IMG/VR virus record: IMGVR_UViG_3300022555_002641
Span: 57,683-121,682 of that record
Source of the DNA: a virus
Direction: 5' to 3' (one strand)
Length of the DNA: 64,000 nt
Under the pieces are notes generated by a model that saw nothing but the letters and a program-made list of their open reading frames with translations, was not told where the DNA came from and did no database searches. This document shows positions 3,990 through 63,654 of this stretch, one piece after another. Position numbers and translations under genes: made by a program. The first letter of the stretch is position 1; every line of letters starts with the position of its first letter.

Positions 3990-5936
3990 TTAAATTTGTA
4001 TTTTTAATTGAACTGATATATCTCCGCCAGCCATCGTATTTCCAACTTGATCTACATCTATTGATAAAATATCCCCTTCTACAAGTGAAGTTGTATCAAA
4101 ATTTGATTGAGTTCCATAAGTTTGCCCACTTAAAATTTTTAATCTATTGGATTGTGTAATATTCCATATACTCACACCATTTATATTTATATCAAAAATA
4201 TCGTCCGTTCCTTGTGGGCCAGTTCCAGAACTAACATATGCTTTCAATATTGTTCCTATATACGGAACTATTACTCTTGTTTTATTAGTTCCAGTTGTTA
4301 GTGCTGTACCTACTGCTAATAAAAACGTAATATTAGATATACCTAAACCTGAACTACCTGAAGTTCCTGATGATCCAGAATTACCATCTATCCCAGATGT
4401 TCCTGAAGACCCTGATGACCCAGAATTACCATCTATCCCAGATGTTCCTGAAGACCCAGATGTTCCTGAAGACCCAGATGTACCATCGATTCCTGATGTT
4501 CCTGAAGACCCTGATGACCCAGAATTACCATCTATCCCAGATGTTCCTGAAGACCCAGATGTTCCTGAAGACCCAGATGTACCATCGATTCCTGATGTTC
4601 CTGAACTTCCAGATGATCCTGATATACCGTCAATTCCTGAACTTCCCGAACTTCCTGATCCTCCATCAGTCCCAGAACTTCCAGAACTTCCTGAACTTCC
4701 TGTTCCTCCATCAGTTCCAGAACTTCCTGAGCTCCCTGAACTTCCTGACCCATCAGTCCCAGAACTACCTGAACTTCCTGAGCTTCCTGTTCCACCATCA
4801 ACCCCAGAACTACCTGATGTGCCATCAGTTCCTGAACTGCCTGATGAACCTGAACTACCGTCAACACCTGATGAACCTGAACTACCAGAACTTCCTGAAC
4901 TACCAGAACTTCCTGATGTGCCATCAGTTCCTGAACTGCCTGATGATCCTGAACTACCTGAAATTCCAGCACTTCCTGATGTGCCATCAGTTCCTGAACT
5001 GCCTGATGAACCTGAACTACCTGAAATTCCAGAACTACCTGATGTGCCATCAGTTCCTGAACTGCCTGATGATCCTGAACTACCTGAAATTCCAGAACTA
5101 CCTGATGTGCCATCAGTTCCTGAACTGCCTGATGAACCTGAACTACCAGAACTTCCTGATCCATCTGTCCCTGAGCTTCCTGAACTACCTGATGACCCAT
5201 CGGTTCCAGAACTACCTGATGATCCTGAAGAACCAGCTCCACCATCAGCACCAGAAGAACCAGAAGAACCAGAACTACCTGAAGACCCAGTTCCGCCATC
5301 GGTACCCGAAGAACCAGAACTACCTGATGAACCAGTTCTACCATCAGTGCCTGATGACCCAGATGACCCTGAAGAACCATCTGTACCTGATATTCCAGAA
5401 GAACCTGATGTACCATCACTACCCGATACTCCTGAAGACCCAGATGTACCATCACTCCCTGATATTCCTGATGACCCAGATGTACCATCACTACCTGAGC
5501 TTCCATCAACACCAGATGTTCCTGAAGTTCCAAAATTTGCGCCATCAACCCCTGAAGAACCTGACGTACCAGAAGTTCCAGAAGTGCTTGTCTTTCCACT
5601 ATAATTCCAATCTTTATCGGGGGAAAACAGAATTGTTGTTGCCCCACTTGTTATAATACCTGTAGTAATTGTATATTTACCAATACCCAAACCAATAGCA
5701 ACGGCAGTATAATCAGCATCAGTATTTGGAGTTCGACCACCTTGAGTGTTTCCAGTATAATCAAAAGTAAAATAAATTGAAGTCCTTCCAGACACATATC
5801 CAGTAATTGGATTCCCATCAGAATCTTGAATTAAGATAGCATTATTGGTTCCAAAAGAATTTGTAAAATAAATCCAATATTTAGATTGCTGATCATTAGC
5901 AAGATAATTGTTAAATAATATATTACCAGTAGACAT
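3990..5936 (-). CDS. Gly-Ser/Thr collagen-like (G-X-Y) repeat virion fibre protein
   Basis: About 410 aa of GSS/GTS/GTD triplets between globular N- and C-terminal domains; ATG at 5936. Confidence 0.75.
   Translation of the reverse strand: MSTGNILFNNYLANDQQSKYWIYFTNSFGTNNAILIQDSDGNPITGYVSGRTSIYFTFDYTGNTQGGRTPNTDADYTAVAIGLGIGKYTITTGIITSGATTILFSPDKDWNYSGKTSTSGTSGTSGSSGVDGANFGTSGTSGVDGSSGSDGTSGSSGISGSDGTSGSSGVSGSDGTSGSSGISGTDGSSGSSGSSGTDGRTGSSGSSGSSGTDGGTGSSGSSGSSGSSGADGGAGSSGSSGSSGTDGSSGSSGSSGTDGSGSSGSSGSSGSSGTDGTSGSSGISGSSGSSGSSGTDGTSGSSGISGSSGSSGSSGTDGTSGSAGISGSSGSSGSSGTDGTSGSSGSSGSSGSSGSSGVDGSSGSSGSSGTDGTSGSSGVDGGTGSSGSSGSSGTDGSGSSGSSGSSGTDGGTGSSGSSGSSGTDGGSGSSGSSGIDGISGSSGSSGTSGIDGTSGSSGTSGSSGTSGIDGNSGSSGSSGTSGIDGTSGSSGTSGSSGTSGIDGNSGSSGSSGTSGIDGNSGSSGTSGSSGLGISNITFLLAVGTALTTGTNKTRVIVPYIGTILKAYVSSGTGPQGTDDIFDININGVSIWNITQSNRLKILSGQTYGTQSNFDTTSLVEGDILSIDVDQVGNTMAGGDISVQLKIQI
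4345..5590 (-). repeat. Coding tandem 9-bp-unit repeat (G-X-Y triplets)
   Basis: Repeated cctgaacta/ccagatgtt/cctgatgat-type units on the + strand. Confidence 0.9.
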
Positions 5937-6054
5937 CAAAAAAGTCGTTTTTTCAATGACTATATATAATTTACTAACAGTCAGAATTTAATTGGTTGGT
6001 AAAAAAAATTTTTGATGGAAAATATTAATATATACTAAAAAATAATATCATCGT

Positions 6055-6823: not shown

Positions 6824-7610
6824 ATATTATGTTTATATTTATTTAGACCCTCGAAAAAAAGGAAAATTTATATATGGTGATTTAGAATTTGAATATGAAC
6901 CTTTTTATGTTGGGAAGGGAAAAGGTGATAGAATTTATAGGCATTTGCATTTATATAAAAGTGATTATACAAATGAATATAAATATAATAAAATAAGAAA
7001 AATAAAATTAGAAAATTTAGAACCAGTAGTTATAAAAATTTTCGATAATTTAGATGAAAAAAACGCATTTAAAAAAGAAAACGAAACAATTTTAAAAATT
7101 GGAAGATTGAAAAACGGACCATTAATAAATTTTAGTGATGGTGGGGAAGGTCAAAGTGGTTATAAACATCGTGAAGAAGATAAAAAGAAAATCGGAGAAC
7201 GTGTAAAAAATTCAGAAAAATGGCAAATCGCAATAAAAAGTGATGAACATAAAAAGAATTTAAGCAAATCTTTAATGGGGCACGAGGGACATGTATTTAT
7301 CCATAGTGATAAAGCTAAAGAAAAAATAAGAATTGCTCAATCTGGAAATAATAATTCATTTTATAAAAAAACTCACACAAAAACTCTTAAAAATAAATGG
7401 AGTAGTGAGCGAAAAGGAAATAATAACCAGAATTCAGTATTATATGAAATTAAATCCCCAATTGGCGATATACTGAAATTTAAAGGTATGAACGAAATAA
7501 AAGATTATACCAGTAAAACTAAATTGTTTAGTCCTACCAGTATAATCAAATATGGAATTTCTAAAGGATATCAAATAATATCCAAAATCAAATTAAACAA
7601 GATTTTTTAA
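6816..7610 (+). CDS. GIY-YIG homing endonuclease with NUMOD3-like repeats
   Basis: YYVYIYLDPR...PFYVGKG...R, N-x-x-DGGEG, and repeated H-x-E-E/D-x-K-x-K-I motifs. Confidence 0.85.
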   Translation: MNEYYVYIYLDPRKKGKFIYGDLEFEYEPFYVGKGKGDRIYRHLHLYKSDYTNEYKYNKIRKIKLENLEPVVIKIFDNLDEKNAFKKENETILKIGRLKNGPLINFSDGGEGQSGYKHREEDKKKIGERVKNSEKWQIAIKSDEHKKNLSKSLMGHEGHVFIHSDKAKEKIRIAQSGNNNSFYKKTHTKTLKNKWSSERKGNNNQNSVLYEIKSPIGDILKFKGMNEIKDYTSKTKLFSPTSIIKYGISKGYQIISKIKLNKIF

Positions 7611-8471
7611 TTTCAATGCTCTTAATAATCTCGTTAAACCGCAACCACATCCATACCTATTAATCATAGTTAAATTCAAGAACTCTTCTAATTCTTTTTC
7701 AACCCTATCTTTACCAAATTCATTATAAAGTAATTTAGCATACATTCCATCTGATATTGTATGAAAACTATTTCTCATTTGAACTACATCCACAGACCTT
7801 TCAGCCGATCCAAATGTTTCTTGACCGCAAATTATAAAATCACATTTATTGAATATTTTTTCATTGGTTAAATTACTATATCCATTGTTTTTCATATTAA
7901 AAAACGGGGAAGTTCTCTCAGGAAAATTTATAATTCCAACAACATCCCCATACTCTTTCCATAATCTGGTTTCTTGATCAGATTCTAAATAGTTAACTCC
8001 ATATTTAATACATAATTCATCATATGTAAATATAGGAATATTATCAACAGAATCAATAAATCCCATATATACTGCTAATTCACTAAGAGTATTTATGAGG
8101 TCTGAAAATATTCCTTTGTGCTCAAATTCCCACATGGGGAACGTTAAATCGTGTCTGCCTGGTATAGGGGCTGGCTCATCACGATATGATGCGGTTAGAC
8201 AAAAAAGTCCATCCAATTTATCAGCATACATCATTAATTCTTTTTCCAAATGCATTTGTGAAGTTTGGGGAAGGGGCCAAATATCACCATCAAAATTAAA
8301 ACTCCTAACTGTTTTTGGGTCTTCACACGCAGCTAAGATACTTAGCCGTGATTGTGGAAATGTTTCTAAATAACCTTTTTCAATAAAAAACCCTCTCAAC
8401 TTTGATATCATTTTGTTAAAGTCTTGAGGGTCAATGATTTTCTGTTCGTAAACTCGTTTGTTCATGGGCAT
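7593..8471 (-). CDS. Class II aaRS catalytic-domain-only protein (AsnRS-like / archaeal-type asparagine synthetase A-like)
   Basis: LPQTSQMHLE, SYRDE...GRH...F.M.EFE (motif 2), QETFGSAER, GCGCGLTRL (motif 3); no anticodon-binding OB domain. Confidence 0.8.
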   Translation of the reverse strand: MPMNKRVYEQKIIDPQDFNKMISKLRGFFIEKGYLETFPQSRLSILAACEDPKTVRSFNFDGDIWPLPQTSQMHLEKELMMYADKLDGLFCLTASYRDEPAPIPGRHDLTFPMWEFEHKGIFSDLINTLSELAVYMGFIDSVDNIPIFTYDELCIKYGVNYLESDQETRLWKEYGDVVGIINFPERTSPFFNMKNNGYSNLTNEKIFNKCDFIICGQETFGSAERSVDVVQMRNSFHTISDGMYAKLLYNEFGKDRVEKELEEFLNLTMINRYGCGCGLTRLLRALKLKNLV

Positions 8472-9600: not shown

Positions 9601-10803
9601 ATGGTAGATGTTGTTATAGATTTACAGTTCGGGGATTGTGGTAAAGGTCGTATAGTCGATTGGTTATCACCAGATTATGAGATTATTGCAAGATTTAATG
9701 GCGGTCCTAACTCTGGGCATGTTGTAAAATTCAATGGTAAGGAATATTCCTTACATCTTATCCCATCTGGAATATTTGAAGGTAAGCGATGTGCTTTGGG
9801 TAATGGTGTAGTTATTGATCCAATATCTTTTAAAAAAGAAGTTGAAATGCTGGAAGCTGATGGTATTGAAGCTAAGGTTAATTTGTGTATATCAAAATAT
9901 GCTCATATTATTACTCCACAGCATATTGTTGAAGATGCTGAAATTGAAAAACGACTTAATATTGGAACAACCCTTAAAGGTATCGGTCCTGCTTACACCT
10001 CTAAGTTTCGCAGGGATGGAATTCGTATTTGCGACATCACTGATGACCTAATTCAAAGTTTCGCTGGATACCCAGAATTTCAGGATGGGTTAAGATATAT
10101 TGTAGATAATATTGCTATAGCCAGTTTAGAAAGATTACTTAATTCACCATACACGCCAATTTTGGCAGAAGGTGCTCAAGGCACATTACTTGATGTAGAC
10201 TTCGGAACATATCCATATGTTAGTAGTTCAAATAGTACAATTGGTGGGGTATGCACTGGACTTGGAGTTTCTCCAAAGAATATTGATAAGGTTTATGGGG
10301 TATTCAAAGCATATATGACTCGTGTAGGCGGAGGACCATTTATAACCGAAATAGACGATGAAGATGGTGAAAAGATCAGAAGCATCGGTAATGAGTTTGG
10401 ATCAACCACAGGTCGTGCAAGGCGTTGCGGGTGGCTGGATTTACCAGCATTAGAATATGCTTGTATCATCAATGGTGTAACAGATTTGATAATGACAAAG
10501 GTTGATGTACTTAATGGGTTTGAAAAAGTAAAAATTTGCGTTGGGTATGCATTGGAAAATGATGCAGATTTTGATCCTGATTATGATGATGAGAATAATG
10601 TGTATACATACGATCCAACTATTCATAAAGAAAATCCAACCCCAATATATAGCGAATTTCTTGGCTGGGAAGAGTCTACATCTGAAAATGAAAATCTTGA
10701 AACATTCATATCATTCATTGAAAGAAAAATCGGTGTGAAAATTAAGTTTGTATCTTATGGGAAAGATAGAAATGATATGTTCGAAAGGATATTTGAAAAA
10801 TAA
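9601..10803 (+). CDS. purA: Adenylosuccinate synthetase
   Basis: QFGDCGKG, GGPNSGH, GTTLKGIGPAY, EGAQG, TYPYVSSS, TRVGGGPF, EFGSTTGRARRCGWLD. Confidence 0.97.
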   Translation: MVDVVIDLQFGDCGKGRIVDWLSPDYEIIARFNGGPNSGHVVKFNGKEYSLHLIPSGIFEGKRCALGNGVVIDPISFKKEVEMLEADGIEAKVNLCISKYAHIITPQHIVEDAEIEKRLNIGTTLKGIGPAYTSKFRRDGIRICDITDDLIQSFAGYPEFQDGLRYIVDNIAIASLERLLNSPYTPILAEGAQGTLLDVDFGTYPYVSSSNSTIGGVCTGLGVSPKNIDKVYGVFKAYMTRVGGGPFITEIDDEDGEKIRSIGNEFGSTTGRARRCGWLDLPALEYACIINGVTDLIMTKVDVLNGFEKVKICVGYALENDADFDPDYDDENNVYTYDPTIHKENPTPIYSEFLGWEESTSENENLETFISFIERKIGVKIKFVSYGKDRNDMFERIFEK

Positions 10804-16610: not shown

Positions 16611-16996
16611 AAGTAACTAAAGAAATATTATTCATGAGTGGATATGATATGCGAGAGATTGCAACTAAAATAGTTACTAATAAAGCAACAGATTTCACAA
16701 AAAAATTAAAGGGTAGGTATAAAAAATTCATGTCTGATGAATTTATTATCGCTTACATTACTTATAAATTTGTAGATTTGTATGTGGAGTATTGGGGTAA
16801 AGGTGTTAGAACTCCCAATGCCATAAATATTGCCTATGATTCAACAATAGAACTTTTTGAAAATATTCTTGAGCATCGTTGTCATGCAACTGGTAATGGG
16901 CATCATGTTGCTCAAATGTTTTCTGGTTATTTTGAAGATGCATTAATAACTGACAAAGAACTTAGAAAATTAAAATTACAAAAAATCGAATTATGA
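16607..16996 (+). CDS. Hypothetical protein
   Basis: ATGA-coupled; C-terminal tag LRKLKLQKI. Confidence 0.7.
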   Translation: MKVTKEILFMSGYDMREIATKIVTNKATDFTKKLKGRYKKFMSDEFIIAYITYKFVDLYVEYWGKGVRTPNAINIAYDSTIELFENILEHRCHATGNGHHVAQMFSGYFEDALITDKELRKLKLQKIEL

Positions 16997-18987
16997 AATA
17001 CTTAACATTATCAGAAATTTATGATCTCCTTTTTGAAGGAAATTATTCAGCAGCCGTAGAGCAGCTCCGTCTTTTAAATGACGCTTACAGGAAAGGTGAC
17101 CCAAAAATAAGCGACCCAGAATGGGATAAAATTTATGAAGATGTCAGGTCTTTCGTTCCTGATGATGATTTTTTCAAATCTGCCGTCATTGAGGAAGTTA
17201 TTGTCAATCCTGAGAGGATGGAAAAACTTATTTACCCTATGTATTCATTGAACAAATTGACAACTATCGAAGAAATTCAGAAAAAAATTGCCAGCAAAGG
17301 GCTTCCACCGAATATTCTTGTAGTCGTATTATCAAAGTATGATGGTTGTTCGGCACTCAATTATGAGCAGGGCCCATCGTGCTGGTCGAGGGGAGATGGT
17401 GTTGAAGGTCAACGATTAATGGAACATTATAAGAAAGTTGGACAAAACGGTCAAAAATTAAAAGCCAATTTGTATACCATTGGCGAACTTATCATTGCTA
17501 AAAAAACATTTGCCGACAACCAACATTTAATGATCAAGAAGGATGGAACCCCATACAAAAATCCTCGCAACATGGTGGCTGGACTTATAAATGATGATAA
17601 TGCTTCTGATTACTGGAAGTACGTCACTCATATTCGTTACGGTATTGCTGATGCCGATGCCAATTTTACAATGGATAAGCTTGAGCAGTTAAAGCTTATT
17701 CCTGAAATTCCTTATCTTGCAATTCCAGCCAATGAATTAACCGAAGAATTACTTGACGGTTTGTATTACAAATGGGGTGAAGACTGGGAAATTGATGGTC
17801 TTGTCATTGACATAAACGATAAAAATATTCGTAAATCCCTTGGGCGTGAGACCAATGATAACCCTGCATATGCTTGGGCATACAAAAAAGGCTGGACAAA
17901 GCCGACAACAACACCATTGATAAGCGAAGAATGGAATCTTGGTAAAAAAGGTTTTATGGCTCCAGTTATCAATATTCAGCCAGTTGAAGTTGAAGGTGTT
18001 ACCGTATCACGTGCGACTGCATACAATGCAAGGTTCGTTCTTGAAAACGGTATTGGGACTGGCGCAATTGTTGACATTATCCGATCTGGTTCCGTTATTC
18101 CTAAGATTGTAAATGTAAGAAAGCGTGGAGCCGTTAGCCTTCCTACACACTGCCCATCATGTAATCATGAGCTTGTTTGGAGCACCAATACCAAAGGTGA
18201 GCATGTGAATCTCATGTGCATCAATCCAGATTGTGAAGAAATCAAGTTTAAGATGGCAGCATTTTTCTTCACCAGCTTTAAATTAAAAGATTTTGGTGAA
18301 GGTACAGCAAAGATTCTGTTTAACAACGGATTCGACAGTGTCAATAAAATTCTGAATATGACCATTGATGATCTTAAAAAAATTAATGGGCTTGGTAATG
18401 TTTCTGGTACAAAATTTCTGAAAGAAATCAGCACAAAGATACGGAAATGTACATTCGAAAGAATTGGGCATGCGTCTGGGTGTTTTGAGAACCTTGGCTC
18501 AAGAAAACTGAAGATGATCCTTGATGGTATTGGGCTTTCGTATATTGAGCTCGCTTCAAAAATTTCAACATCAAATGGTGTTGAATTGTTGAATTTTCAG
18601 AACAACCTACTGAGTATTAAAGGCGTTTCAGATAGAACTGCCGCTGCATTTATGGATGGGCTGGCTGAATTCAAGGAATTCATCAAAGATATTGACGTAG
18701 AAATTGTTGATGTTGTTGAAGATGCCGAATCTGATGCTCCTGATGCAGTTGTTCTTAAGCCACAGGATATGACAGGTAGGGCATTCCTATTCTCAGGCTT
18801 TCGTGATGCCAATCTTGAAAAATATATCGTAAAGAATGGCGGTGAGATAAAGTCATCATATTCAACTAAAGTTACCGATCTCCTTCTGGCTGACATTAAT
18901 TCGTCTTCAAAAAAGACAAATGATGCAAAGGCTAATGGGTGCACGATCACACAAATTGATGATTTCAGGAAAAGCTTATCAGTATAA
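16993..18987 (+). CDS. ligA: NAD-dependent DNA ligase
   Basis: KYDG adenylation motif, SRGDG, NPRN, EIDGLV, C4 Zn finger, HhH repeats, C-terminal BRCT. Confidence 0.95.
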   Translation: MKYLTLSEIYDLLFEGNYSAAVEQLRLLNDAYRKGDPKISDPEWDKIYEDVRSFVPDDDFFKSAVIEEVIVNPERMEKLIYPMYSLNKLTTIEEIQKKIASKGLPPNILVVVLSKYDGCSALNYEQGPSCWSRGDGVEGQRLMEHYKKVGQNGQKLKANLYTIGELIIAKKTFADNQHLMIKKDGTPYKNPRNMVAGLINDDNASDYWKYVTHIRYGIADADANFTMDKLEQLKLIPEIPYLAIPANELTEELLDGLYYKWGEDWEIDGLVIDINDKNIRKSLGRETNDNPAYAWAYKKGWTKPTTTPLISEEWNLGKKGFMAPVINIQPVEVEGVTVSRATAYNARFVLENGIGTGAIVDIIRSGSVIPKIVNVRKRGAVSLPTHCPSCNHELVWSTNTKGEHVNLMCINPDCEEIKFKMAAFFFTSFKLKDFGEGTAKILFNNGFDSVNKILNMTIDDLKKINGLGNVSGTKFLKEISTKIRKCTFERIGHASGCFENLGSRKLKMILDGIGLSYIELASKISTSNGVELLNFQNNLLSIKGVSDRTAAAFMDGLAEFKEFIKDIDVEIVDVVEDAESDAPDAVVLKPQDMTGRAFLFSGFRDANLEKYIVKNGGEIKSSYSTKVTDLLLADINSSSKKTNDAKANGCTITQIDDFRKSLSV

Positions 18988-56368: not shown

Positions 56369-57086
56369 ATCTTTGTTTATAAGCGATCTTCATCTTGGTA
56401 ATCCAAATTCTCAAGCTGATAAAGTCTTGAGTACACTTAAAGAATATGAATTTGAAAATTTATTCATAGTTGGGGATTTTATAGATATGACATACTTAAA
56501 ACGAAAATTCTATTGGCATAAAGATCATTCAACTATTATTCAAAAAATACTCAGGCTCTCCAGAAAAGGTGTAAACGTTTTTTATATCATCGGCAACCAT
56601 GACGCTTATATTAGAAGTATAATTGAAGATCAAAATCTAAATGTTGGCGATATTATTATATGTAATGAATATGTTTATCAATCAATAAAAGGTGAAAAAA
56701 TTTACATTACTCACGGTGATCAATTTGATGGCTTTATTATTATACATCCATTCCTATACTGGATTGGTGATAGTGCATATGAATTATCAATAAAAATAAA
56801 TAAACTATACAATTTTTTCAGAAGAATATTCAGATATGATTATTGGAGTCTTTCACAATATCTTAAAACTAAAGTAAAAAACGCAATCCAGTTTATTAAC
56901 GAATATGAGAAGTGGGCTGACATAAAAATTAAAGAAATGAAATGTGATTCCATTTTAATGGGGCATACCCATGTCGCCAAAATTATAGACGGCAAATATT
57001 ATAATACTGGTGATTTTGTGGAAAGCTGTAGTTATATCATAGAAACAATTGATGGAGAAATGATATTAAAATTCTGCGAAGTTTAA
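56358..57086 (+). CDS. Metallophosphoesterase (LpxH/UDP-2,3-diacylglucosamine hydrolase-like)
   Basis: SDLHLG, GDFID, GNHD, HGD, GHTH, NTGD. Confidence 0.88.
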   Translation: MKIKSLFISDLHLGNPNSQADKVLSTLKEYEFENLFIVGDFIDMTYLKRKFYWHKDHSTIIQKILRLSRKGVNVFYIIGNHDAYIRSIIEDQNLNVGDIIICNEYVYQSIKGEKIYITHGDQFDGFIIIHPFLYWIGDSAYELSIKINKLYNFFRRIFRYDYWSLSQYLKTKVKNAIQFINEYEKWADIKIKEMKCDSILMGHTHVAKIIDGKYYNTGDFVESCSYIIETIDGEMILKFCEV

Positions 57087-57088
57087 TG

Positions 57089-58624
57089 TTATTTCATTTC
57101 CGAACATGTGATCGGTGCTATAGGTTCTATGGCACCGATTATTGCTTTATAGCCATCCTTCCAAATTTCAGGATCAGTAGTTCTTGAAATTGCATTAAAA
57201 GTTTCCATAGCCGCAGCTACAATTGTATTAAACTTATAAGTCCTTTCGTAAACATCAATAGTCTTCTTCCTGATCATGTCAATTCTATTTCTTGCCCAAT
57301 CTTCATCCTTCTGATTAGGAACATGAACTATATCACCGATTTTCTGATAGCCAGCTTTGAATTTATTTATAAATCTACTGCAACCAGATATATTTGAATC
57401 GATCCATTCGAAATCCTGTTCAGGTGGGCCAGCAAACATGATGTACATTCTCACAACATCTGCACCATATTTTTCAACCATCTCATCAGGTGACACCCCA
57501 TTACCAAAATTCTTGGACATTTTTCTACCATCCTTCTTCACCATGCCCTGACAAATTACACGTTTAAACGGCTCGACTGGAGCATCCTCAGGAATATATC
57601 CCATTTTTTTGAACATTCTCCAGAAAAATCTTGCGTAAATCATGTGCCCTGTTGCATGCTCAGCACCGCCAATGTAATAATCAATCGGGAACCAATGTTT
57701 TATTTTATCCCAATCAAATCTGGTACCATCGAAATCTGAAATGTAACGAATGAAATACCAACTGGATTGTACAAAAGTATCCATGGTATCGGTTTCCTTT
57801 TCAGCATTTCCACCACAAACTGGGCACTTAATAAACTTCCATGTTGGATGATTCGCCATTGGATTTCCGCATCCATCGAATTTAACGTTTTCAGGGGCTA
57901 TAACGGGGGTTTGCTCGTTGGGTATGCAACCGCACCTTGGACAGTTGATCATCGGTATAGGAGTCCCCCAATAGCGTTGACGTGAAATACACCAGTCTGA
58001 GAATGGACGCACTTCATCTTTTTCACGAATTCCATTTTTTATGAACTGTTTTTGCTGCTTTGTGATTACTTCAGCCCAGTCACCTTCAATATCTTTTATG
58101 GAGTCATACATATCATCAGCAAACATTGTAGTTTTGAAATAATATTGCACCATTTCTTTCTGCTCAATCTTTGCACCAGATCGCCATCCTTTACCATCAA
58201 TTACTTGATTGGCTGCCATCACGGTCTGATCTACGGGGTCCCAATTCACCATCCCGATCTTCTTCTCAATAAATCCAGCTTTCCAAGCATCAATAAAAAA
58301 TCTTTGCTCATGCTGCCAGTAACTTACATCACAAGTCGAAATTTCACGATCCCAATCAAAATCCATAGCCATAGCTTTCATTTGTGTTCGCATATGGGCG
58401 ATGTTGGCATTTGTCCAATCCCTTGGATGAACATTGTTCTTGATCGCTGCGTTTTCCCCAGGCATGCCGTATGAATCCCAGCCTATTGGGTGGCATACAT
58501 CAAATCCTTTATTTCGCCAGTATCTGGAAATTGAGTCCGATATGGTGTAATTCCGCATGTGCCCCATGTGAATACTTCCAGATGGGTAAGGAGCCATTGG
58601 TGTCACCATTACATTGTTTTTCAT
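57089..58624 (-). CDS. leuS: Minimal leucyl-tRNA synthetase (no CP1 editing domain, no C-terminal domain, zero Leu residues)
   Basis: MAPYPSG, HMGH, GWDSYGMPGENAA, DWCISRQRYWG, ETDTMDTFVQSSWY, GGAEHA..H..YARF, KMSK. Confidence 0.92.
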   Translation of the reverse strand: MKNNVMVTPMAPYPSGSIHMGHMRNYTISDSISRYWRNKGFDVCHPIGWDSYGMPGENAAIKNNVHPRDWTNANIAHMRTQMKAMAMDFDWDREISTCDVSYWQHEQRFFIDAWKAGFIEKKIGMVNWDPVDQTVMAANQVIDGKGWRSGAKIEQKEMVQYYFKTTMFADDMYDSIKDIEGDWAEVITKQQKQFIKNGIREKDEVRPFSDWCISRQRYWGTPIPMINCPRCGCIPNEQTPVIAPENVKFDGCGNPMANHPTWKFIKCPVCGGNAEKETDTMDTFVQSSWYFIRYISDFDGTRFDWDKIKHWFPIDYYIGGAEHATGHMIYARFFWRMFKKMGYIPEDAPVEPFKRVICQGMVKKDGRKMSKNFGNGVSPDEMVEKYGADVVRMYIMFAGPPEQDFEWIDSNISGCSRFINKFKAGYQKIGDIVHVPNQKDEDWARNRIDMIRKKTIDVYERTYKFNTIVAAAMETFNAISRTTDPEIWKDGYKAIIGAIEPIAPITCSEMK

Positions 58625-58646
58625 AACTATCTATTTTTTAAGTTAG

Positions 58647-58719
58647 TAGCCTCGGTGGGATTCGAACCCACGAAATTATGGTCCTAAGCCATACGGATAT
58701 ACCACTCTCCTACGAAGCC
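58647..58719 (-). tRNA. tRNA-Leu(UAG), short variable loop (type I)
   Basis: GGCTTCG/CGAGGCT-A73; anticodon arm TATGG CTTAGGA CCATA; variable ATTTC; T arm GTGGG TTCGAAT CCCAC. Confidence 0.88.
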
Positions 58720-58732
58720 ATTTTTCATATCG

Positions 58733-58817
58733 TGCCCAAGACAGAACTCGAATCTGCATGCTCTTTCAAGCACAACGGTCTGAACGTTGCGGGTCTAACC
58801 AATTTCCCCACTTGGGC
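58733..58817 (-). tRNA. tRNA-Leu(CAG), long variable arm
   Basis: GCCCAAG/CTTGGGC-A; CAACG TTCAGAC CGTTG; variable stem TGCTT GAAA GAGCA. Confidence 0.9.
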
Positions 58818-59559
58818 GTTGTTTTTTTGGCGGAATACCGCCATAACTTTTGATCCATTTTTTTATTGCGTTATCACTAACACCATATTTCTTGCCAGTT
58901 GATAAGTAACTTGTATCATTTACTTCTTTTAAAAGTATTTCCAATGATGGTCTATCTTTAATTTTTCTTTGATTTATTTTATCACATTCATAACATCTAT
59001 TTGATTTTTTTTGAATTTCTTTGCCGCATTCACAAAAGTTATTTTTTGATTTAATATATTTAGTATATTTTTTCTTTCGTAACTCAGATATGCTACTTTT
59101 TATTTTAGAATTGCAATACGTTACAGTTTGACTATGGCAATTTGGACATAAAATTTTCAAATTGGTTATTCTATTGTCTAAATTATCACCATTAATATGA
59201 TCTAAATGTAAAGTTAATGGTTTTCCATTCCATTCATGTATTCCACAATTTTCGCATATATTTTTTTTTAAATTTTTTTCTATTAATTTTCTTCTTAAGC
59301 CTGAGGTGTTTGAATATGTAGAATTCTTTACTAAAATTTCATCAAGATTACATTTTCTCCCAAAATTTTTAAATCTCTTTCCACAATTCCAACCTTGACC
59401 TGTAAAATGTGAAATATCTATTTCATATAATTTAATATATTTCTTTACAGTTTTATAATTTCCACCAATTGGTCTTACATTTAATTTTCTACAAACGTCA
59501 GCTATTGACAACGATGTTTTAGTTATTTCTTCTAAATTGCTTTTCTCATAATTTTTCAT
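58795..59559 (-). CDS. HNH homing endonuclease inserted in the tRNA cluster
   Basis: CENCG...LHLDHINGD..DNRITNL.ILCPNCHSQT; C-terminal HTH-like; stop lies inside tRNA-Leu(CAG). Confidence 0.9.
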   Translation of the reverse strand: MKNYEKSNLEEITKTSLSIADVCRKLNVRPIGGNYKTVKKYIKLYEIDISHFTGQGWNCGKRFKNFGRKCNLDEILVKNSTYSNTSGLRRKLIEKNLKKNICENCGIHEWNGKPLTLHLDHINGDNLDNRITNLKILCPNCHSQTVTYCNSKIKSSISELRKKKYTKYIKSKNNFCECGKEIQKKSNRCYECDKINQRKIKDRPSLEILLKEVNDTSYLSTGKKYGVSDNAIKKWIKSYGGIPPKKQRPSGEIG

Positions 59560-59633
59560 ATTAAACTTTTTTTTGTATATATAAAAGTTTAATAGTCGAA
59601 AAAATAAATTTCAAGCAACTCTTAAAATTTTTG

Positions 59634-59718
59634 TGGTCGAGGAGGGAGTCGAACCCTCATGGCTCTTAACCAACAGGCTCTCAACCTGTTGCGTTCTTAC
59701 CAATTTCGCCACTCGACC
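59634..59718 (-). tRNA. tRNA-Leu(GAG), long variable arm
   Basis: GGTCGAG/CTCGACC-A; ACAGG TTGAGAG CCTGT; T arm GAGGG TTCGACT CCCTC. Confidence 0.9.
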
Positions 59719-59728
59719 TTTTTATTTG

Positions 59729-59802
59729 TACTCCCACACGGACTCGAACCGAGATATAATCTGTTTAAGAGATTAATGACTAACCAATTGCATCATGGGA
59801 GC
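59729..59802 (-). tRNA. tRNA-Leu(UAA), short variable loop (type I)
   Basis: GCTCCCA/TGGGAGT-A; AATCT CTTAAAC AGATT; variable ATAT; T arm CTCGG TTCGAGT CCGTG (one mismatch). Confidence 0.82.
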
Positions 59803-59810
59803 AATTTTTG

Positions 59811-59892
59811 TGCCGCTGAACGGACTCGAACCGATACATCTTCCGATATGAGTTTCTTAGGCTCACGTGGCTACCAATTACACCACAGCGGC
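59811..59892 (-). tRNA. tRNA-Leu(AAG), long variable arm
   Basis: GCCGCTG/CAGCGGC-A; TGAGC CTAAGAA ACTCA (C31.A39 mismatch); variable TATC GGAA GATG. Confidence 0.82.
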
Positions 59893-59898
59893 AATTTG

Positions 59899-59970
59899 TA
59901 CTCTCACTCAGACTCGAACTGAGACACCATCCTTTTGAGGGATGTACGACTACCATTACGTCATGAGAGC
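59899..59970 (-). tRNA. tRNA-Leu(CAA), short variable loop (type I)
   Basis: GCTCTCA/TGAGAGT-A; CATCC CTCAAAA GGATG; variable GTGT; T arm CTCAG TTCGAGT CTGAG. Confidence 0.88.
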
Positions 59971-59978
59971 AAAAAATG

Positions 59979-60064
59979 TAGCGAGTGTGGGGGTCGAACC
60001 CACAAGAGCACAGAGGCTCACGGACTTTTAAGGACCGCATGTTTGCCAGTTTCATCAACTCGCC
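59979..60064 (-). tRNA. tRNA-Leu(UAA), long variable arm
   Basis: GGCGAGT/ACTCGCT-A; CGGTC CTTAAAA GTCCG; variable GAGC...GCTC; T arm GTGGG TTCGACC CCCAC. Confidence 0.88.
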
Positions 60065-60092
60065 ATTTTTAAATATTTCAAAGAACACAAAC

Positions 60093-60125
60093 AAAAAACC
60101 CCCAGTCTTTCGACTGGGGGTTTTT
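60093..60125 (-). terminator. Attenuator terminator of the Leu operon
   Basis: Minus strand AAAAACCCCCAGTC-GAAA-GACTGGGGGTTTTTT, 28 nt upstream of the first tRNA. Confidence 0.9.
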
Positions 60126-60150
60126 CATGATAGGGTTAAAGGTAACCACT

Positions 60151-60240
60151 TTAACACATCTGTATAACTCTCCCAGTCCTGTTGCTTTGTAACAATAGGT
60201 TGTTGAGGAGAAGTACCAGTGTATTAATGTTGTTTTTCAT
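60151..60240 (-). CDS. Leu-sensing leader peptide MKNNINTLVLLLNNLLLQSNRTGRVIQMC
   Basis: Leu codons CTG,CTT,CTC,CTC,CTA,TTG,TTA (all six) in codons 8-17; GACTGGG (60178-60172) is complementary to the terminator 5-prime arm. Confidence 0.88.
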   Translation of the reverse strand: MKNNINTLVLLLNNLLLQSNRTGRVIQMC

Positions 60241-60245
60241 AATGC

Positions 60246-60273
60246 TATATATTAATATTTTTTATCAAAGTTT
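60246..60273 (-). promoter_or_regulatory. Putative phage promoter of the Leu operon (AAACTTT...AATATATA)
   Basis: Same motifs recur upstream of other genes in the window; ends 5 nt before the leader ATG. Confidence 0.55.
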
Positions 60274-60297
60274 GCTATTTTTGAAAATTTATTTTAA

Positions 60298-60438
60298 TTA
60301 TTTAAAAAAAGTTACATAAGCAGTGAATAAAGTTCCAGCTACCAGTACGGTTGCTAATATTATTACAGCCCACATACTTAACAAAGTATCTCTATCACCT
60401 TTCCAAAAATAATCATACTTTGCAATAAATTTATTCAT
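60298..60438 (-). CDS. 46-aa single-TM protein (not in ORF track)
   Basis: MNKFIAKYDYFWKGDRDTLLSMWAVIILATVLVAGTLFTAYVTFFK. Confidence 0.55.
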   Translation of the reverse strand: MNKFIAKYDYFWKGDRDTLLSMWAVIILATVLVAGTLFTAYVTFFK

Positions 60439-60457
60439 ATTTTTATTTTTAAAAAAT

Positions 60458-60559
60458 CCCCGTTGTGCTTAGCCCTCAACTGCGATTAACCCATACAGCA
60501 TGGTTTCGGTATAAGGCGAATCTATTTCAAGATTCCTGTGAGCTTTTAGCACTTCGGGT
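60458..60559 (-). ncRNA. Candidate structured RNA / 5-prime leader
   Basis: Closing helices CCCG/CGGG and GTGCT/AGCAC, inner hairpins GAATCT/AGATTC and TTATAC/GTATGG; TATATTTG box at 60581-60588. Confidence 0.45.
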
Positions 60560-60611
60560 AACTTTCATTCATTTGAACTGCAAATATACAACTATTTTTT
60601 AAATAAAAAAA

Positions 60612-61136
60612 TTATTTACCAAAATTTTTCTTATTGGTTAAATTCTTCAAATTTAATTTTTCATTGGCTGGCGGTGGTGGAGGTGGTGGTGGGACTTCTG
60701 TTGAAGCCGCTGCGGGGGCTGCTGGTGCTGGAGCTGCTGGTGCTGGAGTTGCTGGTGCCTGAGTTGCGCCTGATTGTGGTGCGGGAGATGCTGGTGCCAT
60801 AGGAGTTCCATCAGCATTGACTTTTGGTAATGGGGCCTGAATAGTATTTGGGTTGGGGGTTGCCAATGATGCAATATCTTGAGGTAAAAATGAGGTTGTG
60901 GACGGTACAGCCTTACAATAATTAATTAATTCGTTTTTAAATTCCTCATTTTTCAATAAATCACCAATTGTTATCATTGGACATTTATCAGCACTTGCGA
61001 TAAAACTTTCACTACCAATTTTATCAATTGTTTCAAAAAACTGTCCACCAAGTGCGATATCATCATTTGTAACCACTCCATTGTATCGCTCACTATGATA
61101 GTTAATATAAATTCTTGCTTTATCAAGATTTGTCAT
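60612..61136 (-). CDS. Hypothetical protein with Pro/Ala-rich C-terminus
   Basis: ATGA-coupled start at 61136. Confidence 0.65.
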   Translation of the reverse strand: MTNLDKARIYINYHSERYNGVVTNDDIALGGQFFETIDKIGSESFIASADKCPMITIGDLLKNEEFKNELINYCKAVPSTTSFLPQDIASLATPNPNTIQAPLPKVNADGTPMAPASPAPQSGATQAPATPAPAAPAPAAPAAASTEVPPPPPPPPANEKLNLKNLTNKKNFGK

Positions 61137-61898: not shown

Positions 61899-62102
61899 TC
61901 ATGATTTAAATATTTTGTTTAATTTATTTTTTCGTTCTTCTTTTAATTTTTCACACCACGGTGGGGCGGGGGATTTTTTGGTTCGTAATGCATAAGTTCC
62001 AACAAATTTTTCTCTACAATATAATTCAAATGTCCAGTCGCCATTTGGAGTAATCCGTTCACTCGGTACCCAACTATGCAATTTACATTTTTCGCAATCC
62101 AT
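61899..62102 (-). CDS. Small Cys-rich protein
   Basis: CxxC...C...PPWC; tag ERKNKLNKI. Confidence 0.65.
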   Translation of the reverse strand: MDCEKCKLHSWVPSERITPNGDWTFELYCREKFVGTYALRTKKSPAPPWCEKLKEERKNKLNKIFKS

Positions 62103-63654
62103 TGATTCTTGTATATTGTTGTAATCGTGAAACAAATTCATCCCTACCAATAATTTCTGCGATATCAGTTACGTGCGGCCCTCGATTGGCTCCAACTACA
62201 AGTAATCTCAATGGTGCCAATAACCTACCAGACTGCATATTAGCAGTGGCAAGAAAATTATCGATAAAAGATTGTAGTGATTCTTTATTGAATTCTTTCA
62301 ATGTTGTAAGTTGACTCAAAAACAAACTGATTACAAACCCACTATCCATCTTCCAAATTTTATCGATCATTTCTTGTTCATATGTTTGTGGAGAAAAGAA
62401 GAAGAAATCAGATTCTTTCCATAAGTCTGGTAGCAGTACAACTCTTTCACGAATAAGATGAACTATTTTCAAAAGGAATTCATTTTCATCAGTTGGTGAA
62501 TTGAAAGGTGTAAGAGTATTAATAGCCATCCCATGTTCGCCAATACATCCATGATCGCCTAATTGCCCAGATAAATAATAAGCTAATTCCTCATCGGTTT
62601 TATTAAGAAGATGTTTTTGATTAAACCATAACGCTTTCTTTGGATCGAATCGGCAATCAGCCTTAACAATACGATCTAATGAGAAAATATCGATAAGTTC
62701 TTGCATGGTGTATAATTCCTGAGTTGTTCCAGAATTCCATCCAAGCAGCGCAAGTGTATTAACTACAGCTTCTGGAAGATATCCTCGTTCTGAGCAACCC
62801 AAATATTTTTCACCAGTTTGCGGATCAATCCATGGGAGCATGTACGCTGGGAATCCAAATTTTTCACCATCCCTTTTATTGAATTTCCCCTGACCTTCGG
62901 GTTTAAGAATCAATGGAAGATGTGCGAAAACAGGATGTTCCCACCCCATAAGTTTATAAAGTAAAATATGAATTGGGGTTGATGGTAACCATTCATTTCC
63001 ACGTATTACATGAGAAATTTGCATCAAATGATCATCAACAATATTTGCAAAATGATATGTTGGAAACCCGTCAGATTTATATAGGATTTTATCGTCCAAC
63101 GTTGAAGAATTCCATGATACTTCCCCTGCGATTTCATCAGTGAATGTAATTATTTCATTTTCTGGAACTTTAAGACGAAATACACAATCGGCACCACTTT
63201 CAATAAGTTTATCAACTTCTTTTTGAGATAATGTCAAACTGTTTTTGAATTGCATTCGGTTGGCTGCCGAATATTTGAAATGCTCATTTTCTTCACGAAG
63301 CTTAGCTAATTCTTTTGGGGTATCGAATGCAATATAAGCACCACCCTTCTTATAGAGTTCCAAGATATTACTTGTGTACCAAACGCCTCGTTCCGATTGC
63401 CTGTACGGCCCGTATGCACCCTTACCGATAGCAGGGCTTTCATCAAATTTTATTCCAACCCAATTCAAAGAATCGATTATATATTTTTCGGCATTAGGCA
63501 CCAATCTTTCCTGATCAGTATCTTCAATTCTCAAAATGATATCACCACCATTCTTTTTAGCAAAAAGGTAGTTGAACAGGGCTGTTCTAACTCCACCAAT
63601 GTGAAGCGGTCCTGTTGGGCTTGGGGCGAATCTTACTCGTACTTTATTAATCAT
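62083..63654 (-). CDS. gltX: Glutamyl-tRNA synthetase
   Basis: VRVRFAPSPTGPLHIGG, RIEDTD, GPYRQSER, PTYHFANIVDDH, HVIRG.EW, KFNKR (KMSKS-like). Confidence 0.96.
   Translation of the reverse strand: MINKVRVRFAPSPTGPLHIGGVRTALFNYLFAKKNGGDIILRIEDTDQERLVPNAEKYIIDSLNWVGIKFDESPAIGKGAYGPYRQSERGVWYTSNILELYKKGGAYIAFDTPKELAKLREENEHFKYSAANRMQFKNSLTLSQKEVDKLIESGADCVFRLKVPENEIITFTDEIAGEVSWNSSTLDDKILYKSDGFPTYHFANIVDDHLMQISHVIRGNEWLPSTPIHILLYKLMGWEHPVFAHLPLILKPEGQGKFNKRDGEKFGFPAYMLPWIDPQTGEKYLGCSERGYLPEAVVNTLALLGWNSGTTQELYTMQELIDIFSLDRIVKADCRFDPKKALWFNQKHLLNKTDEELAYYLSGQLGDHGCIGEHGMAINTLTPFNSPTDENEFLLKIVHLIRERVVLLPDLWKESDFFFFSPQTYEQEMIDKIWKMDSGFVISLFLSQLTTLKEFNKESLQSFIDNFLATANMQSGRLLAPLRLLVVGANRGPHVTDIAEIIGRDEFVSRLQQYTRINGLRKM

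Follow-up and report, generated by a model that had tools for sequence, protein, structure and literature searches.

The leu, trp and his leaders of bacteria are ribosome-mediated transcription attenuators, and the leader of E. coli pheST works likewise. For the enzyme itself, the closest described system is the leucyl-tRNA synthetase (LeuRS) of Mycoplasma mobile (PDB 3ziu), a cellular housekeeping enzyme of bacterial type that naturally lacks the CP1 editing domain. The excerpted text of its description (PMC3643597) reports that the Leu-specific domain is also swapped, for the tetrapeptide GKDG, and that the enzyme is active in aminoacylation. On the side of protein composition, the principle of cognate bias (Alves and Savageau 2005, cited in PMC4209129) proposes that an enzyme on which recovery from a shortage of residue X depends should itself contain little X; in the excerpted text of PMC4209129 the classic hint is tryptophan synthase alpha without Trp, and the median bias of leucine pathways is −4.4 residues. 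Here we describe a LeuRS gene without a single leucine codon, which lies beside an array of tRNA-Leu genes on a 64,000-nucleotide stretch of viral DNA. This stretch, called the window throughout, covers positions 57,683 to 121,682 of the 121,682-base IMG/VR record IMGVR_UViG_3300022555_002641, for which CheckV estimates a completeness of 17%.

The open reading frame (ORF) at 57089-58624 on the minus strand encodes a bacterial-type LeuRS of 511 amino acids (aa), in which each of the six leucine codons occurs zero times in frame. Across the 162 non-overlapping ORFs of the contig the mean leucine content is 8.03%, corresponding to 41.0 expected leucines in the LeuRS and a binomial p of 2.6e-19 for 0/511 with the contig's own ORFs as background. 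The LeuRS was the sole leucine zero-count entry in the depletion list of the 121.7-kb contig, and the ORFs neighbouring it contain 5-13% leucine. A single base change would turn 228 of its 511 codons into a leucine codon. In the two other reading frames of the gene the six leucine trinucleotides occur 65 and 38 times, and this total of 103 matches the 103.0 ± 4.9 obtained on shuffling the order of its codons. Because the out-of-frame trinucleotides are present at the expected number, avoidance operates at the codon or decoding level and is not directed at a DNA or RNA motif.

Homologues of this protein share the trait. A set of 46 cluster representatives (P0001-P0046, 57-98% identity) was drawn from a large protein collection; most are 510-547 aa long, and one has 436 aa. 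Together they contain 5 leucines in 25,041 residues, every one a singleton. The next matches after the clade were cellular LeuRS of ~800 aa with 52-78 leucines each, and a scan of metagenomes yielded cellular LeuRS for the most part and added no member to the clade. The homologue in LR756501.1, a phage record of 735,411 bases, has 508 aa, is 81.5% identical to the window enzyme and is likewise leucine-free. As a control for mismatches, we compared sequence pairs at 55-85% identity: leucine was involved in 224 of 172,499 mismatched columns within the clade (0.13%), compared with 48,748 of 394,949 (12.3%) within 71 cellular LeuRS. At the 32 columns that are at least 80% leucine in these 71 enzymes the clade carries mainly Ile (32%) and Met (25%), followed by Val (9%), Phe (7%) and Tyr (6%); at one of them, the column of Neisseria gonorrhoeae L550, Ser, Gly or Ala is found. 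Across the five clade loci with DNA, synonymous divergence was saturated (pS 0.60-0.87) and non-synonymous divergence low (pN 0.08-0.25), which indicates long purifying selection on the LeuRS gene without the admission of leucine. In a FastTree phylogeny of 69 rows the leucine-free proteins grouped on a single branch, with a local support of 100 and a stem of 0.64; it lies among cellular LeuRS and apart from a second phage family described below.

The absence of leucine is complete, set at the codon level, clade-wide and under purifying selection. A sequence-only reading of the window had counted no leucine in the 511 residues, had noticed Met, Ile and Phe at positions that are usually leucine, and had deduced strong selection from a chance of 1e-18 to 1e-19. 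The first two statements agree with our counts, and the third is upheld by the contig-based probability, the clade-wide absence and the mismatch control. That reading had also named homologues of normal leucine content in the same context as evidence to the contrary; such proteins exist only in the distant second phage family (30-37% identity), while all close relatives are leucine-free.

Depletion is specific to this enzyme and its clade. In the 735-kb relative, where a crude call gave 823 ORFs of at least 80 aa, no ORF was more extreme than the LeuRS in having a residue at a count of zero or one (p 2e-17); the other three listed cases were two Cys-poor large proteins and one Ser-poor protein, and a second leucine-free ORF was not found among the 823. 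A PF00133 search of four related records returned LeuRS only. The glutamyl-tRNA synthetase (GluRS) of the window (62083-63654, minus strand) contains 7.3% Glu compared with 5.8% in the contig's ORFs, as the sequence-only reading had anticipated in calling the effect leucine-specific, and the GluRS present in three of the four related records contain 7.2-8.1%. A Glu-rich leader was looked for upstream of GluRS and none was found. Two of the four records encode a 291-292-aa class-II-like protein of ordinary Asn, Asp and Lys content, and PF00587 gave one partial match, in one of the four. The window encodes, at 7593-8471 on the minus strand, a 292-aa class-II-synthetase-like protein that consists of the catalytic core only (PF00152, E 6.6e-15). 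Since both GluRS and the class-II-like protein have an ordinary content of their cognate residues, we rejected cognate depletion as a general habit of phage synthetases.

A second phage LeuRS family (family B; loci L002 and L006-L064, of which 57 were scored for leucine and 56 for the ratio to flanking ORFs) allowed the same question to be asked of LeuRS alone. These mini-LeuRS resemble the clade in being phage-encoded, in leaving no room for CP1 and in standing, in a few cases, behind Leu or Leu+Ser leaders. Their genes often adjoin tRNA-Leu genes, including ones of 73-77 nucleotides (nt). They differ in being 30-37% identical to the clade, in their length (405-531 aa, mostly 405-434 aa), in forming a separate tree branch and in retaining leucine: the content was 4.1-12.4% at the 57 loci, and relative to flanking ORFs it ranged from 0.51 to 1.28 (median 0.75) at the 56. 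Leucine depletion as a general habit of phage LeuRS was rejected on these figures, and because family B keeps its leucine, the leucine-free state is a discrete property of one clade and not the end of a continuum. The five family-B loci of the 56 that have a Leu leader are leucine-poorer than the rest (median ratio 0.58 vs 0.76; one-sided Mann-Whitney p 0.004, with loci that are not independent).

As judged by its motifs, sequence and predicted fold, the protein is a bacterial-type class Ia LeuRS. PF00133 matched with 150.6 bits against a cut-off of 22.7, and the closest solved structures were the LeuRS of N. gonorrhoeae, E. coli and Thermus thermophilus (E 5.5e-136 to 4e-111); in the same PDB sequence search the IleRS match was far weaker (E 8e-27). 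The class I motifs are HMGH at residues 19-22 and KMSK at 368-371, and H19, G21, H22, K368, M369, S370 and K371 were invariant in 25 aligned clade sequences, as were the four cysteines of the Zn module and many core residues. The helical anticodon-binding bundle is conserved along with these elements. An AlphaFold2 model built on the clade alignment had a mean pLDDT of 86.6 and a pTM of 0.84, and Foldseek aligned it to LeuRS structures with TMq 0.85-0.88. Close to the active site, within the stretch M-F-P-Y-P-S-G, the position that is Phe in the clade consensus and in N. gonorrhoeae LeuRS is Ala in the window enzyme (residue 11) and Ile in that of the 735-kb phage.

Domain losses were read off by aligning the protein with the 877-aa LeuRS of N. 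gonorrhoeae (E 5.5e-136), an alignment in which residues 9-195, 206-364 and 362-507 of the phage enzyme correspond to 40-225, 428-586 and 629-788. These blocks leave about ten residues in place of CP1, a domain of ~200 residues (N. gonorrhoeae 226-427). The Leu-specific domain (about 587-628) is absent, with a few residues instead before KMSK, and so is the C-terminal domain: the alignment stops at 788 of 877, ~89 residues short, where the clade consensus also ends. The N-terminal ~30 residues are missing in the window's subclade and present in most relatives. Three clade members of 645-647 aa keep a CP1 remnant that aligns only to N. gonorrhoeae 319-369, and these are leucine-free as well. 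The linker of ~11 residues, the missing Leu-specific domain and the shortened C-terminus of the sequence-only reading are thereby recovered from a structural homologue, and the structure prediction it had proposed gave a LeuRS fold. M. mobile LeuRS was matched with E 1.8e-83 and at the fold level with TMq 0.85 and TMt 0.71. The phage enzyme has K-K-D-G before KMSK, where the excerpted text of PMC3643597 places GKDG in lieu of the Leu-specific domain. The M. mobile chain is longer (637 aa, matched over 40-521), with >100 residues beyond the C-terminal end of the phage LeuRS, and the enzyme is not a phage gene; the same excerpts contain no mention of leucine-freeness or of a Leu leader. The minimal phage enzyme probably leucylates tRNA-Leu.

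The LeuRS gene is preceded on the same strand by seven tRNA-Leu genes and, further upstream, by a leader ORF and an intrinsic terminator. The features, all on the minus strand of the window, are as follows.

57089..58624, minus: leucine-free minimal LeuRS, 511 aa (PF00133, PDB match, AlphaFold2/Foldseek; HMGH, KMSK, four-Cys Zn module)
58646..58719, minus: tRNA-Leu(UAG), 74 nt, short variable loop (class I shape), A73, G1.U72 (ARAGORN; Rfam 62.4 bits)
58732..58817, minus: tRNA-Leu(CAG), 86 nt, long variable arm, A73 (ARAGORN; Rfam 46.9 bits)
58795..59559, minus: HNH-endonuclease-like ORF, 254 aa, 7.9% Leu, inside the tRNA array (weak HNH matches, E 1e-3 to 3e-3, below Pfam cut-offs)
59633..59718, minus: tRNA-Leu(GAG), 86 nt, long variable arm, A73 (ARAGORN; Rfam 56.4 bits)
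59728..59802, minus: tRNA-Leu(UAA), 75 nt, short variable loop, A73, G1.U72 (ARAGORN; Rfam 44.7 bits)
59810..59892, minus: tRNA-Leu(AAG), 83 nt, long variable arm, A73 (ARAGORN; Rfam 44.9 bits)
59898..59970, minus: tRNA-Leu(CAA), 73 nt, short variable loop, A73, G1.U72 (ARAGORN; Rfam 54.8 bits)
59978..60064, minus: tRNA-Leu(UAA), 87 nt, long variable arm, A73, G1.U72 (ARAGORN; Rfam 45.5 bits)
60091..60128, minus: intrinsic terminator, a G+C-rich hairpin with GAAA loop and T run (terminator search)
60151..60240, minus: leader ORF MKNNINTLVLLLNNLLLQSNRTGRVIQMC, 29 codons, with seven Leu codons of all six kinds (terminator-coupled leader scan)

The tRNA genes lie directly upstream of the LeuRS gene with anticodons UAG, CAG, GAG, UAA, AAG, CAA and UAA. 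They cover all six anticodon types and are the only tRNAs in the 121.7-kb contig. All seven passed the Rfam tRNA threshold (44.7-62.4 bits). A long variable arm is present in four and a short variable loop (73-75 nt) in three; A73 is found in all seven and G1.U72 in four. The 3′ end of the HNH-like ORF overlaps tRNA-Leu(CAG) by about 23 bases. At the corresponding locus of the 735-kb relative (L001), a different, 256-aa ORF lies between the tRNA-Leu array and LeuRS (5219-5989, plus strand), and by its sequence it may resemble a GIY-YIG homing endonuclease. Short-loop tRNAs with Leu anticodons (73-76 nt, A73, G1.U72) also occur beside long-armed ones in L001, L003, L011, L016 and L021, so that such putative tRNA-Leu recur beside the LeuRS of either phage family, and both families lack the C-terminal domain. 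L001 (~4470-4600 and ~4790-4915) and L003 (~4440-4580) have conserved tRNA-like stretches with a T-arm-like GGTTCGA ending, placed after the Leu leader and before the first tRNA to be called; ARAGORN called no tRNA in them, and they could be interrupted or degenerate tRNAs.

As in ribosome-mediated attenuators, the leader combines a short ORF rich in regulatory codons with an intrinsic terminator and a competing antiterminator. It differs from the classical leaders in belonging to a phage, in presumably gating tRNA genes together with a synthetase and in using all six leucine codons. The terminator starts 23 nt past the leader stop codon and is the sole minus-strand terminator-like site in 56900-60700; no minus-strand terminator was found between the tRNA-Leu array and LeuRS. 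Inside the leader ORF, bases 60172-60178 are a seven-base copy of part of the terminator 3′ arm and serve as the antiterminator segment. Folding was predicted for the transcript as it stands before the terminator 3′ arm exists, with the ribosome modelled as a mask. With a ribosome at the first, middle or last leucine codon, 8-9 of the nine terminator 5′-arm bases were predicted to pair with the antiterminator copy, whereas 0/9 did so when the ribosome stood at the stop codon or was absent. In these models the ribosome-dependent pairing of the window leader is classical attenuator logic. Rfam contained no known leader family that reached its gathering score for this leader.

The design of leader, terminator and antiterminator is conserved in the clade. 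A leucine-rich leader with a terminator precedes LeuRS or the tRNA-Leu array at all five clade loci (the window, L001, L003, L004 and L005). The L001 leader has seven leucine codons of six kinds and that of L003 ten leucine codons, and in L004 and L005 the leader stands directly before LeuRS. A scan for short ORFs with at least five kinds of leucine codon was rejected as a criterion by itself; because such ORFs are common by chance, the requirement for a terminator and an antisense control were added. The resulting uniform scan detected leaders at four of four clade loci (five of five with the window) and at 5/56 family-B loci, with 1/60 loci in the antisense control. A stricter perfect-stem version found 4/5 and 3/57, respectively.

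We consider it probable that this locus encodes a working minimal phage LeuRS as the last gene of an attenuator-gated leucine-decoding module, and that the enzyme can be translated without its own product. When charged tRNA-Leu is plentiful, ribosomes would pass the leader, the terminator would form and the module would be off. Slow reading of any leucine codon would stall a ribosome and free the antiterminator, whereupon RNA polymerase would read through into the tRNA-Leu genes and the LeuRS gene. Since its message has no leucine codon, the LeuRS could be translated unhindered, at full rate, under the very conditions that induce it, and the module could thus restore or boost Leu-tRNA(Leu) independently of its own product. 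The trait under selection, we infer, is the ability of the message to be translated when Leu-tRNA is short; the sequence-only reading had suggested translation without Leu-tRNA, which fits the position of the gene behind a Leu-codon attenuator and a set of tRNA-Leu, surroundings on which that reading was silent. Starvation could bring the shortage about, and so could a high demand from the phage, a phage shut-off or a host attack that hits tRNA-Leu or LeuRS. That the module supplies tRNAs and an enzyme but no leucine suggests a fault in tRNA-Leu or LeuRS, not a lack of the free amino acid. Nothing was met that directly shows a host or phage factor to cause the shortage, and no systematic search for such factors was made.

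Several observations weigh against this interpretation. An extra synthetase and tRNA would be of no use if the cell were short of free leucine. In L001 and L003 the antiterminator is predicted to form without a ribosome too, in L004 and L005b only 7/12 and 7/11 arm bases pair, and the fold support at L001, L003, L004 and L005 is accordingly weaker or less classical. Full-length minimum-energy folds always give the terminator, so that the attenuator argument rests on co-transcriptional order. Co-transcription of leader, tRNA-Leu array and LeuRS is itself something we infer from the sequence, and the array is interrupted by the HNH-like gene of normal leucine content (7.9%). The family-B LeuRS behind leaders keep their leucine (18 in L002, 20 in L012, 19 in L019, 33 in L023 and 22 in L043); attenuator control alone does not force leucine-freeness. 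The phage enzyme has no C-terminal domain, and in the LeuRS of E. coli and Thermus its deletion reportedly abolishes charging. The placement of the clade among cellular LeuRS is tentative because it comes from FastTree only and many rows are of unusual composition.

Alternative explanations differ in how they account for the module as a whole. In one of them the host tRNA-Leu or LeuRS is destroyed or blocked, by a nuclease or toxin of host abortive infection or by a phage shut-off, and the phage swaps in its own tRNAs with a fitted synthetase; leucine codons would be unreadable until the enzyme exists. Such a takeover or counter-defence would suit an array that supplies all six anticodon types without singling out rare ones, and a module that brings tRNA and enzyme and no leucine synthesis. 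The 5 leucines in 25,041 residues suggest that even a single leucine codon is costly. The class I shape of three of the seven tRNAs and G1.U72 in four could be matched to a LeuRS without the C-terminal domain, the part that binds the tRNA elbow in bacterial LeuRS, although the four long-armed tRNA-Leu genes in the same array make it less likely that the short-armed tRNAs and the enzyme are a strictly private pair. An inhibitor, nuclease or toxin directed at tRNA-Leu or LeuRS was not identified, in work that did not include a systematic search; the attenuator implies expression on demand and not on a schedule, and the 735-kb relative has no further leucine-free ORF. We regard this explanation as unlikely. 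Error-proofing is a still weaker candidate. An editing-less LeuRS would mischarge tRNA-Leu with Ile, Met or norvaline, and a leucine-free gene would spare the enzyme the feedback of its own errors; CP1 is indeed absent, the leucine replacements are mostly Ile and Met, and the editing-less LeuRS of M. mobile causes mistranslation. That enzyme too lacks CP1 and the Leu-specific domain, according to the excerpted text of PMC3643597. Yet family-B LeuRS of only 405-531 aa, such as that of L002 with 422 aa and no room for CP1, contain 4.1-12.4% leucine, and clade members of 645-647 aa with a partial, probably inactive CP1 are leucine-free. The remaining phage proteins would take the same errors and keep normal leucine, and the Leu-sensing leader is left unexplained, which makes error-proofing improbable.

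The protein might also serve outside translation, as a sensor of leucine or tRNA or as an enzyme making Leu-AMP only, its lack of leucine allowing, for example, escape from a Leu-directed protease or from tagging. The missing C-terminal tRNA-binding domain and N-terminal ~30 residues would agree with this, as would the Ala or Ile that the subclade has for the consensus Phe in the M-F-P-Y-P-S-G stretch. We find it very improbable, given that HxGH, KMSK, the Zn module and the anticodon-binding bundle are kept under strong purifying selection, that the gene abuts tRNA-Leu genes, and that avoidance is at the codon level and tied to a sensor of decoding. Chance, composition or avoidance of a nucleotide motif has practically no standing as an explanation: we rejected the first two on the probabilities for the window contig (2.6e-19) and the 735-kb relative (2e-17), for a clade-wide trait whose neighbours contain 5-13% leucine, and the third on the out-of-frame counts, which were as expected.

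The preferred reading, a demand-gated module ending in a synthetase that can be made without its product, has no described counterpart in the literature searched: no report of a cognate-free synthetase or of leader-gated phage tRNA arrays was found, within a coverage outside which supplements and most subscription journals fall. The 735-kb genome is described by Al-Shayeb et al. 2020 (PMC7162821), in whose main text, as available, ‘leucine’ and ‘attenuat’ occur zero times; its supplements may hold synthetase details. Cognate bias, in the excerpted text of PMC4209129, concerns biosynthetic enzymes, and ‘synthetase’ occurs there once, for tryptophan synthetase. The present case is a tRNA synthetase in a virus, in which ~41 expected leucines have become none. 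The feedback module is the most economical reading, and in it the leucine-free LeuRS would be the cognate-bias principle at its limit, applied to a synthetase.

Short ORFs enriched in amino acids that match the tRNAs of the array downstream were also observed at other phage tRNA arrays, in LR756501.1 and elsewhere. In LR756501.1 the arrays concerned lie at 169875-173813, 194300-194844, 202935-207319 and 362624-367322, all on the minus strand. An Ile/Met/Gln/Glu-rich leader stands before a Glu-Ile-Met-Gln array, a Lys/His/Ser/Phe/Trp-rich one before a Lys-Trp-Ser-Phe-His array and a Thr/Gly/Pro/Ala/Val/Arg-rich one before a Pro-Arg-Gly-Ala-Val-Thr array; Leu+Ser and Leu+Arg leaders occur at other loci. 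When leaders and arrays were cross-scored, the diagonal of the matrix (−log10 p) was 4.2, 0, 3.3, 3.4 and 4.4 and the off-diagonal maximum 1.8, so that four of five arrays fitted; for the Asp-Tyr-Ile-Asn-Cys array no matching leader was found within 500 nt. The perfect-stem scan placed a terminator-like site at two of the four fitting arrays (Glu-Ile-Met-Gln and Leu). Further codon-matched leader sites are at 3850-3948 in L005, at 4540-4611 in L043 and ~780 nt upstream of the LeuRS of L023.

Other features of these genomes were recorded. LR756501.1 has, at 690585-690738 (plus strand), a pair of neighbouring tRNAs whose anticodon, CUA, would decode UAG, and at 8513-8586 in L002, a locus of a 634-kb phage, ARAGORN calls a tRNA with a four-base anticodon. 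The window also encodes an adenylosuccinate synthetase (9601-10803) and an NAD-dependent DNA ligase (16993-18987), both on the plus strand. TAnnTTTG motifs near L004 and in the window may, by their resemblance to a promoter consensus, be promoter-like. The window DNA recurs in freshwater and lake metagenome runs of several studies, and there were no RNA runs among those listed for window positions 57089-60300.

As far as the literature searched shows, this is the first aminoacyl-tRNA synthetase to be described from which the cognate amino acid is completely absent, and if our reading is correct it would offer a clear example from nature of a translation component that is independent of its own product. 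It raises the questions of how little LeuRS suffices for charging, without CP1, Leu-specific and C-terminal domains, and of whether a short-armed tRNA-Leu can work in bacteria. A compact leucine-free LeuRS with its tRNAs may serve cell-free systems and the reassignment or depletion of leucine codons. It also directs attention to the fate of leucine decoding in cells infected by huge phages, and to codon-by-codon sensing of decoding speed by these viruses. More tentatively, and as a possibility we place well short of probable, phage tRNA arrays may be demand-gated by codon-matched leaders, with the leucine module, through a partly private channel, rebuilding decoding from nothing once the host's tRNA-Leu or LeuRS has been disabled, be it by host immunity or by the phage. 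Were this so, the domain-poor LeuRS and the short-armed G1.U72 tRNAs would form that channel, and the leucine module would be the extreme case among the decoding modules of huge phages, one whose synthetase has been purged of every leucine codon.

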